Below, one piece after another: positions 27,173 to 62,142 of a stretch of DNA of 64,000 nucleotides (position 1 is its first letter; each line of letters starts with the position of its first letter). The stretch covers positions 2,944,001 to 3,008,000 of the forward strand of contig CP166615.1 of NCBI GenBank assembly GCA_041937175.2. Reading direction: 5' to 3'. The DNA is from Limnothrix sp. BL-A-16. GTDB taxonomy: Bacteria > Cyanobacteriota > Cyanobacteriia > CACIAM-69d. The position numbers were made by a program, and so were the translations under genes. Under the pieces are notes generated by a model. That model was not told the origin of the DNA. It did no database searches and saw only the letters and a list, made by a program, of their open reading frames with translations.

Positions 27173-27817
27173 TCACGATTCAGCCGATCGAGCAGAATCT
27201 ATGGAATTTGGATCGATCGCTTGGCTCAGTTCCACCTCTTCGTAAACCAACAACAACGGACAAGCAAAATTGAGGCTCATCAGCTCAAGAATCGGCTGAT
27301 TTGGATCGGCTGCATCGTCAGGATATGCGGTTAATTCCCATTTCCCAGCACTCGTTTTGCGGTAGCAATCAACTCCTACCTTTTCCGCATCAATTAGCAC
27401 GTATTCTTCCAAGGTTGGAATGCGGCGATAGTAGCGAAATTTGTCACCACGATCGAACCCAGCGGTACTGGGGGATAGCACTTCCACAATTAATTTGGGG
27501 TAACTGATGGCCTCGATCGCCCGTTGATCGCGATCGTCGCAACTCACAACTAAATCGGGGTAAAAATATGGCCCGGCAGCGCTAACCCGCACCTTGGCAT
27601 CAGCCATTCGCACTTTGCAGCCTGTTTCCCGCAAAAATCCCCGCAGGGCGCTGGTTAAGTTCACCGCAATATCGTTATGGGGCAAGGTTCCGACAGCCAT
27701 GGCATACACCTGCCCATGGATATATTCATGCTTAATGGGCTGCTCAGATTCCCAAGCCAAATACTCCGAAACGGTCATGAACTGAGACGGAAATGGAGGC
27801 TGAATTTGAGCAATCAC
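27173..27817 (-). CDS. Uma2-family (DUF820) endonuclease-like protein
   Basis: KHEY..G..YAM, YPDLVV, LIVEVLSPST..DRGDKF..Y, EYVLID. Confidence 0.92.
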   Translation of the reverse strand: MIAQIQPPFPSQFMTVSEYLAWESEQPIKHEYIHGQVYAMAVGTLPHNDIAVNLTSALRGFLRETGCKVRMADAKVRVSAAGPYFYPDLVVSCDDRDQRAIEAISYPKLIVEVLSPSTAGFDRGDKFRYYRRIPTLEEYVLIDAEKVGVDCYRKTSAGKWELTAYPDDAADPNQPILELMSLNFACPLLLVYEEVELSQAIDPNSIDSARSAES

Positions 27818-49522: not shown

Positions 49523-51778
49523 CTAAACAAAATAGAGGCGGCGTTCGCAGCGCACATCGGCGGGCAGGCAATCCTTGAGGGCAACTTCGGCGATCCGATC
49601 GGCGTAGTAAGTGGTAATCGGAAGGCGAATCACTTGGGTGCTGCCGATGTGCATTTCGCTGAGCCAATAGATTTGGGCGGCGATCGTCAGGATGTCCGTT
49701 TGGCCGTGGCGGCGACGCACCAAAAGGGGCTGGGGGCTGGCGTTGGGGGCAACTTTGGCCTGTTTAGCACCGGTTGTGAGGACGATCGCCTCATGATCGT
49801 TGTGAACCCAAGCCCAGCCTCGATCGGGATTTTGCCACTGTTCCTGGTTGGTGTTGGGGTCGATCGCCCGCACCGCCGCCCGCGCCAACACATCCTTCAC
49901 CACTTCCACCACCTCCAATTGCTCTAACCCATGGGGCCGCAATTCGGCTTCCAGGGCTTGCAGGGTGGCTAGTTCGCTGTTTTTGATGGTTCCATCGCGA
50001 TGAATCACCACATGGCGCGGGGGTTCACCGCTTTGCTCAGTAAATGCACCAAATAAATCGAGCAAAATATTGCGCAGGCTGACTTCGCTGAAGGTTTCGC
50101 CCCGCTGCATGGAGGCGCTTGACCAGCCGATCGCCTGGCCTTGGCGGTTCACCACAAAGGCAGAAGCCCCGATCGTCCGTTCCTCTTTGCGGCCCAAATC
50201 TAGCCCCACAAAGGCTTGGGCAGCGCCGGGCATTTGGTGCAACTGCCAGGGAGCATAGCCGAGCTTTGCCAGAATGCCGAACACCACATTTTGATCGCGC
50301 CCATCGTTTTTGATTTGGCGCATGGTTTCGCGCGTCACCATTTGCGAACAGTAACTTTGTTGATTGAGGATTCTTTTTAAGGTGAAGTAGGGATTAACTT
50401 GAGCGTTGTAAATTGGGTCTTGTCCGTTGGGCACAAAGGCAAAAATTAGGTCATTAACATTCACAGGCAAGTTCTGGCAAACCTGACGCAGGGAAAGGGA
50501 ATTTTGCGGATCATAGGGACGTAAATCGCCAGCCCTTGTGAGTGTAATTCCAAATTCTTGGAACCGACTTTTTAGGGCTACCATATACTTTTTCACCTCT
50601 GCTTCCCAAGCTTGGGGATACAGCACTTGCGTCCGAATTTCTGCCGGTTTTTGGTGAAGGACTCGTTGTTTCCAACCACGCCAAGCTTCGTCTACTAAAA
50701 GCGGTCGATCGGGCTGTTGTGGATCTGCGCCAAAGGATAGGTTTCTGGCCATGGAACCAGCGGTCAATTGAGTGAGGTGATCGGGCTGCCAAGGGTTGGG
50801 ATCAAATTCAATCTGATCGCCACAAATAAATCCTCGTTTGTTTAAAAGGTCGATGGTTCTTTGCATTAATTCCTGACGCTTAGCCAGTGGCAAAATGCAA
50901 TGGTTCAGCGATTTGCTGGGTAGGTCTTCACGGGCATAGATTCGTTTCAATAGTTGTGGTAGATGATGCAACGGTTGGTAGCGGGGAGCATAACCCACCG
51001 CAACGGCGGGTTGATTGGGATCCAGTTGTGCGGCCAATTCTGGGGCCAGGTTTTGGCGATCGCGGTGATAATCCAATAGGCTTTGGTTGCCTAATTCCGC
51101 TAAGGGCTGACCGATAGTAATCGGCGCAACGCCTAGAAATTGGCAACTTTTGCCATCGTAAGTATGAATCAGGCGCTGTTTGGGCGGAAACTGCTGCCAA
51201 TCGAATTGGTCGATCGTGCCGATGGATTGATATTCATTCCGAAAGTGCAAGGTTAGGAAGAGAAATCCCGTCGAGTTTTGCCAAAAATCAAAGGTTAAAT
51301 ATCGTCTCGCTTCGGCAATAATTCGGACTTGGGCATCTCGAATTTGAATCGGCGGTTCGTTGGAATAAATGCGTTTGCGATTTTCTTGGACTTTCTTGGC
51401 ACTATGGGGATTAATGGTTTTGAAAATGCTGCACAGCCGATAATTACAGAGTTGAAACAGCCAGGTTTGATATCTGGGTTCGCTCAGGTCGATCGCCTCG
51501 CTTTTGAGGATCTCAATTTCCAAAGGTTCTGAGGAAGTTTCGCAAAACTGCCGCAAACAGGCTAATAAGTTCGCTGCCTGTCCCCGGTCTTCGGAGATTA
51601 GGGCGAGGCTGGACTGATCGTTGGTAACCCACTGATTGAGCCGAAATTTGCAAAATCTTGCGAGGGAGTAGAGGGTGTCGATCGGGGTGGCACTGCCGAT
51701 GATTCGCAGTCGATCGCGCCGGGCGGGTACAGATCCAAGGGGATTACGCGATTGAAAGCTGAGTTCTCGAATATCCAC
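49523..51778 (-). CDS. Long prokaryotic Argonaute (PAZ-MID-PIWI), predicted catalytically active
   Basis: MID YFTLK..SQMV..N...LAKLG; PIWI tetrad GLDLG (D), RGETF (E), IHRDG (D), YYADR (D); C-terminal LYFV. Confidence 0.93.
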   Translation of the reverse strand: MDIRELSFQSRNPLGSVPARRDRLRIIGSATPIDTLYSLARFCKFRLNQWVTNDQSSLALISEDRGQAANLLACLRQFCETSSEPLEIEILKSEAIDLSEPRYQTWLFQLCNYRLCSIFKTINPHSAKKVQENRKRIYSNEPPIQIRDAQVRIIAEARRYLTFDFWQNSTGFLFLTLHFRNEYQSIGTIDQFDWQQFPPKQRLIHTYDGKSCQFLGVAPITIGQPLAELGNQSLLDYHRDRQNLAPELAAQLDPNQPAVAVGYAPRYQPLHHLPQLLKRIYAREDLPSKSLNHCILPLAKRQELMQRTIDLLNKRGFICGDQIEFDPNPWQPDHLTQLTAGSMARNLSFGADPQQPDRPLLVDEAWRGWKQRVLHQKPAEIRTQVLYPQAWEAEVKKYMVALKSRFQEFGITLTRAGDLRPYDPQNSLSLRQVCQNLPVNVNDLIFAFVPNGQDPIYNAQVNPYFTLKRILNQQSYCSQMVTRETMRQIKNDGRDQNVVFGILAKLGYAPWQLHQMPGAAQAFVGLDLGRKEERTIGASAFVVNRQGQAIGWSSASMQRGETFSEVSLRNILLDLFGAFTEQSGEPPRHVVIHRDGTIKNSELATLQALEAELRPHGLEQLEVVEVVKDVLARAAVRAIDPNTNQEQWQNPDRGWAWVHNDHEAIVLTTGAKQAKVAPNASPQPLLVRRRHGQTDILTIAAQIYWLSEMHIGSTQVIRLPITTYYADRIAEVALKDCLPADVRCERRLYFV

Positions 51779-51990
51779 AATTGAAGCGGCTATAATTAAC
51801 GCATGAATTATATCACTTAAAGCATTTTTATTTTAAAGCACCTTGAAATTCATTCAAAGGTCATTGCGAAACAATGCAACCCCATGAACCCGATCGCCAT
51901 CAAGTCGCCATCAATTGAATTCAATTAATCCAATTCAATTAGCCCAAATATTCATCTAATCTAATCAACAAAAATCAGCCAAAGTCATTC

Positions 51991-52161
51991 GACCTCTTGC
52001 ATCAATCAAAACCCTCACCCTAAATCCCTCTCCCGACTTGGGAGAGGGACTTGACAACCAACAACGAAATCGCCGTAATTCCCGATTTCTGGCTCCCCTT
52101 CGCCATCCTTGGGAGAAGGGGTTGGGGGATGAGGGCTGTTAGCTAGTTCGCGCAAGAGGTT
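51991..52161. mobile_element. MITE-like element (family C) containing an inverted pair of CCCTC/GAGGG hairpins
   Basis: Ends ACCTCTTGC / GCAAGAGGT; internal CCCTCACCCTAAATCCCTCTCCC..GGGAGAGGG and an inverted counterpart (52012-52135). Confidence 0.65.
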
Positions 52162-52184
52162 TATTCAAGGTCAGCCAATATCAA

Positions 52185-54386
52185 CTAACCAAAATAAATG
52201 AGTAAATTCAGACCTGGAATAGTTCGGGAAAGCGTCCACAAAAGCAGGCCGATATACATTAAACCCAACGTCCATTGATACCAAACTACCAAGGAAATTT
52301 CGGCGGGTAAATGTTCATCTCGCATCCGCACATCGCTAAACCCAATCCGAAAAAGATTGATGGCGCTGAGGTCGTAATAATTCAACCAGGCCCAACGCCG
52401 GTTCCACAGAAGCGGCATGAATCGTTCCCGAAAGAAGTGATAGCGGGGCATGAGGGGTAAACGGGCGATCGGGAGTTGCACTTGCCGAATTTCACCATTT
52501 TCCACAAAGTAGCTCACATCCATCAGGTCATGGAACCGGCCGCGCCAATAGAGCTTGATCAGCAGGGCGATCGGGATGGGGCCGATCGAGATGGCAACGC
52601 TGGCCAACGTCCACCAAGGGCGATCGCTGGTTTGGAAAATGGTCGCTAAACCCAGGCTGAACAACAGTCCGGCGCTGCTGCCCATCCAGAGGGTTTCGGG
52701 CCAGGTGGGCACGATCGGTTGGGGGCGCAACTTGCGGAGTCGATCGACCAACCAAAACCAAAGGGCAAAAAAGGTCATGGCCACCAACCCCACCCCCAAC
52801 ACGAGGCCGGCGCTGGTGCCGGCCCGACTCAGCAAAATCAACAGGTTGGTTCCCAGCCATTGCAGGGCGATCGTGCCCCAGGAGAGGGGCGTGCTGGTGC
52901 GATCGGCCGTGACCCGATCGCGCACTTTCACATAGGTTGCCAGGTCAACGCCCTCGATCGACAGCATTTCCGCCACGGTGCGCAGGGGTTGCCGATCGCG
53001 GGCTTGGGCGATCGCCTGGGCCTGGGTGGGCGAAAACCCGATCGACACCAACACCGCTGGCTTGGCCGCGTTCAGGTTCACCCCCGTGAGCCGCTGTTGC
53101 AGGGTCTTGAGCCGCAATTTAAACAGGGTGTAATCCACCTGGTTGGCATCCGCAATCTGTTCCACCCGCCGAAAATTCCGCACCAGGGTTCGCAAAACCG
53201 TTTCATTGCCCTGCAAAACCGGCACCGACAAAATGCGCCCAATTTCCCCGGGGGAGCCGATTAATTTTGCTTGGTCGCTGTCAAAGTCCAGCCCGGACAC
53301 GTTGATATAGGCTCCGGGGGCAAAACTAGCGCTGGTGAAGTCGGCTTCGTCCAGAATGGTGGCCCCGCGCAGGTTCAGGGGTTTGGCAAACCGAGCATTC
53401 CGAAAGGAGCTTTCGCCATGAAATAGGCTGTCGATCGCATAAAAGGAACTGGCAAAACTGGCCCCATCAAACCGCACTTCGCCTTGCCAGTCGGCTTGGG
53501 TGAGGTCGGCGCTGCCATTCCAATGGCTTTTGCTGAAGTTGGCGATCGCCTGAAATTGCGATCGATAAAAATTGGCTCCCCGCTCAAAGGTGCTGGACTG
53601 GAAGCTAGCATTTCCGGCAAACTTAGCCCCATCGAACCGCGCTTCGCCCGTGAATAGGCTGTTCCGAAACTGGGCACTTTGGGTCACCAAACCGGAAAAG
53701 CGGGCCCCTTGGCTGAAGCGGCTGAGGGAACCCACCAAGGCTCCGCCCAGGCTCAGGCCCCTGGCTTCCACCGGTTCCAAAAAATAGGTGTTGGCTAGGC
53801 GTAGGGAACCGCTAATTTGCAGACCTTCAAGGACGATCGGGCCGCGAAAAACGGAAATCTGCCAATCCAGGGGGCTGCCTTCATCGAGCAACAGCGATCG
53901 GGACAATCGGCTGAGGTGCAACAGCCGCAGTCGATCGCGCCCCAGTTGTTCCTGTTCCGTGGGGGTCAGCAAGGGCGATAGGGCCTTGCCATAGAGCGGC
54001 GCGCGCAGGCCCAACCGAGCCAAATCCAAATCGCCTTGGATGCTGGATCCGCGCAAGTCGAGGCCCAGGCGTTCCTGTTGCAACTTGCTGGCGACCTGTT
54101 GATAAAAGGCTTCCCGAAAGTTGCCATTGTCGCTGCGCAGGTCGATCGCACTCTGGCTGAGGTCGATCGCGGGCTTGCCATCCAACAGTTGGGGATGTTC
54201 CAGGCGATCGCGCAAGGACTCCAGGGTCAGGGCCGGGCGATCGACCGGAGCCGCCTGCACAGGACTGGCCGCCCACAGCCACCCACACCCGATCGCCAAA
54301 GCCCAGCAGATCCCCAGCCCCCAGATCCGCCAGCCCTTGAACCGTTGCTGAAATCCTATGTTTCGCCCAATTGCCACCCACGCCAT
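52185..54386 (-). CDS. Pentapeptide-repeat protein with ComEA-like HhH and C-terminal membrane domain
   Basis: Signal peptide, A.F..A.F repeats, VNLNAA..L..IG..A.AI...R..EGV HhH, several TM helices. Confidence 0.8.
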   Translation of the reverse strand: MAWVAIGRNIGFQQRFKGWRIWGLGICWALAIGCGWLWAASPVQAAPVDRPALTLESLRDRLEHPQLLDGKPAIDLSQSAIDLRSDNGNFREAFYQQVASKLQQERLGLDLRGSSIQGDLDLARLGLRAPLYGKALSPLLTPTEQEQLGRDRLRLLHLSRLSRSLLLDEGSPLDWQISVFRGPIVLEGLQISGSLRLANTYFLEPVEARGLSLGGALVGSLSRFSQGARFSGLVTQSAQFRNSLFTGEARFDGAKFAGNASFQSSTFERGANFYRSQFQAIANFSKSHWNGSADLTQADWQGEVRFDGASFASSFYAIDSLFHGESSFRNARFAKPLNLRGATILDEADFTSASFAPGAYINVSGLDFDSDQAKLIGSPGEIGRILSVPVLQGNETVLRTLVRNFRRVEQIADANQVDYTLFKLRLKTLQQRLTGVNLNAAKPAVLVSIGFSPTQAQAIAQARDRQPLRTVAEMLSIEGVDLATYVKVRDRVTADRTSTPLSWGTIALQWLGTNLLILLSRAGTSAGLVLGVGLVAMTFFALWFWLVDRLRKLRPQPIVPTWPETLWMGSSAGLLFSLGLATIFQTSDRPWWTLASVAISIGPIPIALLIKLYWRGRFHDLMDVSYFVENGEIRQVQLPIARLPLMPRYHFFRERFMPLLWNRRWAWLNYYDLSAINLFRIGFSDVRMRDEHLPAEISLVVWYQWTLGLMYIGLLLWTLSRTIPGLNLLIYFG

Positions 54387-55309
54387 ATCGCGTCTGCCAC
54401 CCGCACCACATCGCGCATTTGCTGAATATCATGCACCCGCACCCAGTCAGCCCCGCCGGCCACACAGGCCGCACAGGCCGCTCCGGTTCCCCAAACCCGC
54501 TGTTTCGGATCCGGTTGCTCCAGAATTTTGCCAATGAAGCTCTTGCGGGAGGGGCCCACCAAAAGGGGATGGCCCAGCGATCGCAAGCTGGGCAAATGTC
54601 GCAGGAGGGCGAGGTTTTGTTCGGCGGTTTTGGCAAAGCCAATGCCCGGATCGATCGCAATTTGGGCCGCCGAAATTCCCGCCTCGATCGCCGCCGCCAC
54701 CCGTTCCGCCAAGCTCGATCGCACAGCAATCACCACATCGGGCAACTGTTGACCAGGCAAATCACCCGCCCCACCCTGGCCCGCAAAATCACTGTAATCC
54801 GTAAGCTGCTGCATGGTTTGGGGTGTGCCGCGCAAATGCATCAAAATCACCGGCACACCCAAGGTTGCCACCGTGGGCAGCAAGTCCGGGTCATACAAGC
54901 CCCCAGACACATCATTCACCACATCGGCTCCCGCCTCGATCGCCGCGCGGGCTACAGCCGCCTTGGTCGTATCGATCGAAATGGGCAAATCCAACGGCGC
55001 AAAATCCCGCCACCCCCGCCGCAGGGCCGCAATCACCGGCACAACCCGATCGATCTCTTCCTGGGCAGAAACCGGCTGGGCATCGGGGCGCGTCGATTCT
55101 CCGCCAATATCTAACCAATCGGCCCCGTCCGCCGCCAGTTGGTGGGCCTGGGCGATCGCCGGTTCCAGTTGGTCAAATTGCCCCCCATCGCTAAAACTGT
55201 CGGGCGTGACATTCAGCACCCCCATCAAATAGGTGCGATCGCCCCAAGTCCAAGGGCGATCGCGCAAAATCCAAGGGGTCAAAGCACAGGCAGACAAGGG
55301 CACATCCAT
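54356..55309 (-). CDS. folP: Dihydropteroate synthase
   Basis: MGVLNVTPDSFSDGG, DIGGESTRP, DPGIGF, SRKSF, VRVHD. Confidence 0.97.
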   Translation of the reverse strand: MDVPLSACALTPWILRDRPWTWGDRTYLMGVLNVTPDSFSDGGQFDQLEPAIAQAHQLAADGADWLDIGGESTRPDAQPVSAQEEIDRVVPVIAALRRGWRDFAPLDLPISIDTTKAAVARAAIEAGADVVNDVSGGLYDPDLLPTVATLGVPVILMHLRGTPQTMQQLTDYSDFAGQGGAGDLPGQQLPDVVIAVRSSLAERVAAAIEAGISAAQIAIDPGIGFAKTAEQNLALLRHLPSLRSLGHPLLVGPSRKSFIGKILEQPDPKQRVWGTGAACAACVAGGADWVRVHDIQQMRDVVRVADAIWRGWQLGET

Positions 55310-61012: not shown

Positions 61013-61642
61013 CTAATTTGCCCCTGGGTGCTCGGCTCCCGATCGCACCCAATTCACAAAGGCCTTCATCGCCGTTGGTTGATTTTGGGGCTGAATAAAC
61101 TGTGCTAACTGTGCAATTTCCAAAGCGGGAAAAAATTCGCTGCGATCGGCAATTTGGATCTCATCCCCCCGCAGGTTATAGAGCGTGAGTTGTTGGTCTT
61201 GCCAAATCAACACCTCTGGCACCCCGATCGCTCGATAAATTGCCAACTTATCCAATCCACCGCTGGTTAGGTTCACTTCCACCGCTAAATCTGGTTGCGG
61301 CTTTAAGGTGCCAATGCAGTAGCACTCATCGGGTTCCAATCCTGCCGCTTTCGATGATTGCCGAAACGTTGTGGAGCCATAGGCATGAAGTGCAATCTCC
61401 ACTTCTTCTGCATAGCGTTCGAGCAATCGAGCGATCGCCTTTTTGATTAATTCATGCTCCGGCGATGGCATAAAAATTTCTAGAACCCCATCGAAATACA
61501 ACAGCCGCAAACCCGACTCATCTCCCACATGATCGAGCCAACAGCCATAGCGCTGCCAACTGATTCCCGGCATCAGCAACCGCTGATCCGATCGTCCAGC
61601 CTGAGGCAGAGTGGGTAAATCATCAGCCACCAAAGTAGTCAT
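61013..61642 (-). CDS. Uma2-family endonuclease-like protein
   Basis: ISWQ.Y, G.LEI.MPS.EHE, EPDECY, PDLAVEV, GVPEV. Confidence 0.92.
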   Translation of the reverse strand: MTTLVADDLPTLPQAGRSDQRLLMPGISWQRYGCWLDHVGDESGLRLLYFDGVLEIFMPSPEHELIKKAIARLLERYAEEVEIALHAYGSTTFRQSSKAAGLEPDECYCIGTLKPQPDLAVEVNLTSGGLDKLAIYRAIGVPEVLIWQDQQLTLYNLRGDEIQIADRSEFFPALEIAQLAQFIQPQNQPTAMKAFVNWVRSGAEHPGAN

Positions 61643-61647
61643 CAGCT

Positions 61648-62142
61648 CTAAAAAGAACGGGACTGAAAAAGCTGGGAAACGGGCAACGAAAACCCAGGAA
61701 TAATTTCTTCGCCGTCTAATTGATCGGTCAATTTCAAGAGGCGATCGGGTTCCGTTGCCGATCGATATACCAACACATAATTTTGACGCGGATTAATCAC
61801 CCAGATCAACCGAGCACCATTTTCAAAATATTCAATGAGTTTCTCGTCGATTTCCTCGATCATATTGGTCGGCGAGAGAATTTCAATCACCAGATCCGGT
61901 GCACCCTCCAAGAACCCGATCGGCAAGTCATCCAATCCCTGAAGCCGTTCCTTGGCAAAGAAAGAGATATCAGGCGATCGCTTGTTGCCATTCTTCATCT
62001 TGAAGGCGGTGCTGGAATCAAACAACGCGCCCAACTTTTGAGCCGCCACCACCGTAAACAAAGCCGCACTCAGCACGATCGCTCGATAGCTATCTTTTGC
62101 GCCCAACTTGTCCGTATCACTGCAACGATCCTGCGAGTCCAT
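61648..62142 (-). CDS. Uma2-family protein, apparently 5'-truncated
   Basis: RSPDISF, GAPDLVIEILSP, EYFENGARL.W; lacks the usual N-terminal E...G.L segment. Confidence 0.75.
   Translation of the reverse strand: MDSQDRCSDTDKLGAKDSYRAIVLSAALFTVVAAQKLGALFDSSTAFKMKNGNKRSPDISFFAKERLQGLDDLPIGFLEGAPDLVIEILSPTNMIEEIDEKLIEYFENGARLIWVINPRQNYVLVYRSATEPDRLLKLTDQLDGEEIIPGFSLPVSQLFQSRSF

Follow-up and report, generated by a model that had tools for sequence, protein, structure and literature searches.

The stretch of DNA that we studied (the window) comprises 64,000 nucleotides of contig CP166615.1 from the cyanobacterium Limnothrix sp. BL-A-16, and it encodes a prokaryotic Argonaute (pAgo) that is probably an active nuclease. 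Upstream of the pAgo gene is an AT-rich region with a promoter-like site and, beyond that, a miniature inverted-repeat transposable element (MITE) and a gene for a protein with pentapeptide repeats and an HhH_3 domain. A Uma2 gene lies on the other side (Table 1). The pAgo is encoded once in the genome (4.56 Mb in 2 contigs). Its GTG start codon is credible because close relatives share the same N-terminal start, MDIRELSF.

Table 1. Features at and around the pAgo gene, in window coordinates.
Feature	Position	Strand	Remarks
Predicted long-A pAgo, coding sequence	49523..51778	-	751 aa + stop; GTG start
PAZ domain, aa 185-286	50921..51226	-	Bounds from Ryazansky 2018 Table S1, via a 96%-identical, gap-free orthologue
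MID domain, aa 373-510	50249..50662	-	Carries the putative pocket for the guide's 5' end
MID-pocket codons	Y464 50387-50389; K468 50375-50377; Q479 50342-50344; K505 50264-50266	-	
PIWI domain, aa 511-732	49583..50248	-	Carries the predicted tetrad
Tetrad codons	D527 50198-50200; E561 50096-50098; D595 49994-49996; D727 49598-49600	-	
Promoter-like site, TTAAAA-18 nt-TGnTATAAT	51836..51807	-	Consensus match; -10 hexamer ends 28 nt before the start codon
MITE, ~170 bp	51991..52160		Terminal inverted repeats GACCTCTTGC / GCAAGAGGT; imperfect 6-bp flanking repeats
Pentapeptide-repeat/HhH_3 gene, 733 aa	52185-54386	-	Same strand as pAgo; upstream, 406 bp off; folP lies beyond
Uma2 (PF05685) gene, 182 aa	48917..49465	+	Converges on pAgo; 57-bp gap
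Other Uma2 match	27299-27769	-	
Other Uma2 match	61142-61555	-	
Other Uma2 match	61678-62085	-	

The catalytic and guide-binding residues could be assigned by comparison with solved structures. Using phmmer, residues 440-750 of the pAgo aligned, through the C-terminus, to CpAgo (E = 7.8e-33) and to CbAgo (6qzk, E = 2.7e-31), while the N-terminal half had no sequence match among solved Argonautes. The two positions that are changed from D to A in the catalytically dead 6qzk chain align with D527 and D595. E561 aligns with the GE of the glutamate finger and D727 with the aspartate of YAD, and the Y-K-Q-K of the MID pocket in CbAgo and CpAgo aligns with Y464, K468, Q479, and K505. We verified the codons of all eight residues in the window's sequence. 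Within the clade that contains this pAgo (described below), none of 15 sequences deviates at the four pocket residues or at D527, E561, or D595; D727 is kept in all 14 that reach this position, and the other sequence (P0010) is truncated. The MID motif reads as the YK type, and the PIWI domain, which has a DEDX tetrad, is predicted to be catalytic.

The fold points the same way. An AlphaFold2 model, built from an alignment of 85 sequences, has a mean predicted local distance difference test score (pLDDT) of 95.2 and a predicted template-modelling score (pTM) of 0.94, and E561 is in a lower-confidence loop, as expected of a glutamate finger. When the whole chain was compared to known structures with Foldseek, template-modelling (TM) scores to long Argonautes were 0.66-0.77. 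The matches include CbAgo (0.72/0.72) and KmAgo (0.74/0.77) as well as CpAgo, TtAgo, CtAgo, and eukaryotic PIWI and Argonaute proteins. As modelled, the protein has the full N-L1-PAZ-L2-MID-PIWI architecture of a long Argonaute. Pfam's Piwi family matches residues 463-733 (E = 4.5e-19), and 23 of the Argonaute models in PADLOC match, of which the best is PprPIWI (E = 5e-92), a name that we could not trace.

A first-pass annotation, made by a model from the letters and the open reading frames, had described a frame of 751 codons with a PAZ-like segment, a Y-K-Q-K pocket, and a complete DEDD tetrad. The frame, the pocket, and the tetrad all stand up to the comparisons above. The evidence for PAZ is mixed: the whole-chain fold alignment spans the region and the PAZ of a catalogued orthologue was scored as “normal,” but Pfam's PAZ_3 model, at residues 202-278, falls below its threshold (17.2 bits versus a cut-off of 27).

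That orthologue is WP_099531684.1, from Limnothrix sp. PR1529, to which the window's protein is 96% identical without gaps over all 751 amino acids. Ryazansky et al. (mBio 2018, PMC6299218, Table S1) listed it as a long-A pAgo with PAZ at 185-286, a MID domain at 373-510 of the “YK-putative” type, and a PIWI domain at 511-732 with a putative catalytic tetrad. The catalogued protein is from another strain and its entry is bioinformatic; we did not find an experiment on it. Because this near-identical orthologue was catalogued in 2018, the prediction of an active long-A pAgo is already in print, and our pAgo is not new in kind. A cluster look-up found other proteins of 751 amino acids and at least 90% identity in Limnothrix sp. 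FACHB-1083, FACHB-881, and CACIAM 69d, besides PR1529, and a protein of 759 amino acids in L. redekei. Intact copies of 751 amino acids are present in at least five named Limnothrix strains.

To place the pAgo among its relatives, we searched 1.84 billion cluster representatives with HMMER, which returned 503 relatives at E ≤ 0.001. Six full-length representatives had E-values below 1e-100; these were followed by a truncated fragment of 273 amino acids (1.5e-75) and then by a drop to 1e-54. For 98 rows, all of them relatives found by HMMER, we computed a quick tree in IQ-TREE from the C-terminal 400 residues, with the frameshifted rows L022 and L029 excluded. The window's pAgo lies in a clade of 27 rows with SH-aLRT support of 100 and a stem length of 0.91. 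Since no long-B or short pAgos were included as outgroups, we take the long-A label from the published catalogue. The named rows of the clade come from Limnothrix, Prochlorothrix, Geitlerinema, Pseudanabaena, Aerosakkonema, Hormoscilla, Prochloron, Snowella, Crocosphaera, and Chroococcidiopsis, so all are cyanobacterial, except for one contig that was binned as Tatlockia (Legionellaceae; L026). In the tree, L026 sits beside a sequence from a metagenome-assembled genome of Chroococcidiopsis, and mis-binning seems more likely than transfer. Some members of the clade may be pseudogenes or assembly errors: L026 and the related L027 have in common an in-frame stop near codon 122 of pAgo (~121-123), and the matches in L022 and L029 are frameshifted (21-24 stops in a straight translation). 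Searching the literature that is free of subscription for several of the clade's genera together with Argonaute, we did not find a biochemically studied member of this clade.

How does this protein compare with the Argonautes that have been studied? Among those of solved structure, CbAgo and CpAgo (from Clostridium butyricum and C. perfringens; PDB 6qzk and 9jh7) are the best matches in both sequence and fold. They are stand-alone, mesophilic, long-A enzymes, and they share the aligned tetrad, the pocket, and the C-terminus with our pAgo. However, the sequence alignment is limited to PIWI and the C-terminal part of MID, identity over the whole chain is 18-19% in the fold alignment, and their clade (which we identified via P0037) lies across the midpoint of the tree.

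The first-pass annotation had cited SeAgo and LrAgo, as cyanobacterial long-A pAgos that are mesophilic DNA-guided DNases. As judged from alignments and the tree, these are analogues and not close relatives. LrAgo (from [Limnothrix rosea] IAM M-220; WP_075892274.1, P0093) likewise comes from a cyanobacterium, is long-A, and has an active tetrad. In the alignment, D527 is matched by the aspartate in the GLD motif of LrAgo, for which a D516A mutant has been published. But LrAgo matches the window's pAgo at 29% identity over 321 amino acids, with no match in the N-terminal half, and it belongs to a separate clade, so we rejected orthology; the common genus name is misleading. LrAgo also has 724 amino acids and a PAZ that was scored as “small.” Similarly, a TtAgo-like cyanobacterial group (L005-L007) is apart from the window's clade in the tree, and we rejected membership in a SeAgo/TtAgo-like clade. 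TtAgo is the best match to the 735-amino-acid frame of L007 (E = 7e-73). This group appears to be SeAgo-like, and L007 may be SeAgo itself, judged solely by the length of its frame.

Another cyanobacterial system of interest is APACE1, in which CtAgo or MaAgo works with the nuclease ACE1 (excerpts of PMC12094033). These pAgos and ChAgo are also long-A proteins with a DEDD tetrad that carry out DNA-guided DNA interference, and ChAgo has tetrad numbering like that of CtAgo. CtAgo matches the window's pAgo far more weakly (E = 9e-13). We rejected the idea that our pAgo is part of APACE1: no Cas4-family ACE1 gene is adjacent to it, and the genome's two stand-alone, Cas4-like PDDEXK_1 genes are over 1.6 Mb away and have no match to solved ACE1 chains at E ≤ 0.01. 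One of these two genes of this genome, G000 (G000:C1:1364649-1365428 and 1365495-1366007; G000:C1:631306-632016), directly adjoins another Uma2 gene.

After the window's clade and the lone P0017, the next-best matches from HMMER were haloarchaeal pAgos (P0018-P0030; E = 1e-47 to 1e-34). These are also the nearest group in the tree, with weak support (SH-aLRT 86, drawn open). They are longer (840-900 amino acids, with about 130 extra N-terminal residues), are 30-35% identical to our pAgo, and have archaeal hosts; the cluster P0021 is named from Halorubellus, Halobellus, and Halomarina. We take this group to contain NgAgo.

The clade's pAgo is rare. Of the 401 genomes that were sampled from the class, 9 had it at E ≤ 1e-50, and these represent 5 of the 169 genera. 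Within the family, all three genomes of the window's genus have it (the window's own is one of the three), and none of five genomes from other genera does. The pAgo is under purifying selection. In comparison with the L. redekei orthologue, the nonsynonymous rate (dN) is 0.025 and the synonymous rate (dS) is 0.185, so that dN/dS is 0.136, which is similar to the flanking genes (0.139 for folP and 0.081 for the pentapeptide gene). The window's genome and G001 (L013), which is in the same genus, have common synteny upstream (49523-55309 in the window), and synteny breaks right after pAgo. The two pAgos are just 56% identical, versus 78-82% for folP and the pentapeptide/HhH protein. That a gene at a fixed locus has diverged so fast inside a single genus neatly illustrates how defence genes evolve. 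We rejected recent transfer on the basis of composition, as the GC content of pAgo (0.518, the 21st percentile of genome windows) is not an outlier in this genome (0.552 ± 0.046).

Does the pAgo have a partner? We clustered the flanking open reading frames of 22 genome loci, which came from a locus scan with a 10-sequence alignment, and no gene family was common to the clade's pAgos. The neighbours across these loci include ABC-F proteins, SufBD, histidine kinases, and GGDEF proteins, and those in the window are housekeeping genes. This agrees with the first-pass annotation, which had seen no operonic effector, with the caveat that the pentapeptide/HhH gene is upstream on the same strand. That gene adjoins pAgo in four related genomes, but full-length orthologues (47-51% identity) are present in five genomes in which we did not find the clade's pAgo. 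Because these orthologues occur without pAgo, we rejected the gene as a partner and consider it to be syntenic baggage. A different gene might be a subclade-specific partner: all four Hormoscilla loci have an open reading frame of 413-427 amino acids on the same strand at the 3' end of the pAgo match (L022 10080-11357, L023 10075-11355, L033 8368-9648, and L034 9970-11208; it overlaps the match in L022 and L023). In the two of these that we scanned (L022 and L034), no Pfam family was found.

The region upstream of pAgo (51779-51984) is 33.5% GC, compared to 55.2% for the genome, and its promoter-like site is consistent with being the pAgo promoter. So the AT-rich upstream region with a TATAAT that the first-pass annotation had pointed out is there. 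A terminator scan found none. The MITE, whose terminal inverted repeats are 9-10 bp long, sits upstream of the promoter-like site, at a distance of about 210 bp from the start codon. Elsewhere in the genome are 15 near-full copies (86-94% identity) and two partial ones. The insertion site is empty in L. redekei. It is also empty in a close relative from a freshwater metatranscriptome, one of whose contigs lacks the stretch from 51987 to 52165. These empty sites imply that what had been called a MITE-like border element is a genuine MITE and was recently inserted.

Given that the evidence from domains, residues, fold, selection, and gene neighbourhood agrees with the earlier description of a stand-alone, predicted active long pAgo, we estimate a probability of roughly 75% that this is a catalytically competent, stand-alone long-A pAgo that acts as a DNA-guided DNA endonuclease against plasmids and phage. 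The pAgo would be transcribed from its own promoter and would not need a dedicated partner gene. It would load small, single-stranded DNA guides with a 5' phosphate, with the 5' end of the guide held in the MID pocket and the 3' end held in PAZ. The guide would pair with complementary DNA, and the RNase-H-like PIWI site (D527, E561 on its loop, D595, and D727) would cut the target strand. In the cell, the pAgo would thereby interfere with plasmids and phage as well as with DNA that comes in by transformation. Multicopy elements such as this genome's MITEs and IS elements may be targets too, as the first-pass annotation had proposed. We infer the guide and target chemistry and the role in defence by analogy to the DNA-guided cleavage of DNA by LrAgo and CbAgo (excerpts of PMC6582412), by CtAgo and MaAgo (excerpts of PMC12094033), and by SeAgo (excerpts of PMC10653904).

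Several points weigh against this explanation. The analogy for the guide and target preference is to enzymes that are 15-35% identical, and our searches turned up no member of the clade that has been assayed. Among long-A pAgos, there are some with a preference for RNA as the target or as the guide (excerpts of PMC9122594, PMC10448046, and PMC11162769). As for expression, a promoter scan found 4 sites versus 2.7 ± 1.7 in shuffled sequences, so promoter-like sites are not enriched; two raw-read RNA runs yielded 0 reads and so say nothing about transcription; and pAgo is covered at low depth by contigs (93-99% alike) from two metatranscriptomes that had been depleted of rRNA, which cannot prove that the source was RNA.

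An active Argonaute with a different chemistry, using RNA guides or cutting RNA instead of DNA, would fit those RNA-preferring relatives, the long branch (0.91) between the clade and all of the assayed enzymes, and an N-terminal half that sequence does not tie to any solved Argonaute. On the other hand, the MID motif is of the YK type, the best matches in sequence and fold are the DNA-guided DNA nucleases CbAgo and CpAgo, and the genes next to pAgo include none for an RNase or for guide biogenesis. We consider this explanation to be unlikely. It is also conceivable that the main role of the pAgo is to maintain the chromosome, by helping to finish replication or decatenation, rather than to defend the cell. 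TtAgo, SeAgo, and LrAgo aid cell division when topoisomerase is inhibited (excerpts of PMC10269773), and our pAgo has ordinary GC content and sits at a conserved locus among housekeeping genes, outside of any defence island. But its distribution is rare and patchy and it diverges much faster than its flanks, both of which are more typical of a defence gene than of a core one, so we think that a housekeeping role is quite improbable. That the pAgo is an inactive relic without a current function we find hardly credible: direct expression data is absent, and nothing else speaks for it, whereas the frame is intact in several strains, the residues for catalysis and guide binding have been kept, and selection is maintaining the protein.

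The remaining alternative is that the pAgo works with its Uma2 neighbour, a PD-(D/E)XK protein that might be an accessory nuclease, as ACE1 is in APACE1. The convergent Uma2 gene is just where the first-pass annotation had put it, and a Uma2 gene is directly 3' of pAgo in all three genomes of the genus. In L. redekei, it is an 88% identical orthologue of the window's gene, along with a tandem duplicate; the G001 gene is a different paralogue, which BLASTP does not match to the Uma2 of the window, and it lies on the same strand as pAgo, 3 bp past the pAgo stop codon. Furthermore, Uma2 matches a candidate-defence model in PADLOC (PDC-S03), and there is a precedent for a PD-(D/E)XK partner of cyanobacterial pAgos (excerpts of PMC12094033). 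However, Uma2 is very abundant: with 57 matches in this genome, any gene has a chance of about 3% of having a Uma2 neighbour. In the window, the two genes are convergent and so cannot have a common transcript. Among the 22 genome loci, adjacent Uma2 genes were found in two, both from the window's genus, and in none of the 20 outside it; in four loci outside the genus, a Uma2 is 2-4 kb from pAgo, which is about the chance level. The first 11 (L035-L045) of 80 metagenome loci were not above chance either, with one Uma2 at a distance of 2 kb and one borderline fragment just downstream of pAgo (L038; 26.7 bits versus a cut-off of 27). L035, which is the closest relative beyond the three sampled genomes of the genus (63% identity, with the same upstream synteny), has no Uma2 within 5 kb. 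So when we followed up the proposal that Uma2 and pAgo might co-occur, adjacency outside the genus came down to that one borderline case, and in the literature that we searched we found no paper that links Uma2 to pAgo in prokaryotes. We view the adjacency within the genus as suggestive at most, and a working partnership as very unlikely. A bolder version seems equally far-fetched: that the clade is a functionally distinct long-A lineage and that Limnothrix recruited Uma2 proteins, in parallel with ACE1 but independently of it, as accessory nucleases that process guides or degrade targets. If this were true, it would be the first defined role for the huge Uma2 family, which has no known function.

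If the pAgo is a stand-alone DNA-guided nuclease, as we expect, then it probably hinders the transformation of Limnothrix strains, much as SeAgo does in Synechococcus (excerpts of PMC10653904). It would also be a reasonable candidate for enzyme characterization, of modest value, as it is an intact, mesophilic, and apparently partner-free member of a clade that seems not to have been assayed.

Two minor observations concern related sequences. The L. redekei genome has a second, short PIWI-like match at the end of a contig (G002:C64:115-648, L010), with an open frame of 203 amino acids that is 29% identical to residues 547-730 of the pAgo. And the window as a whole contains four Uma2 matches, two of them in tandem, where about 0.8 would be expected in 64 kb.

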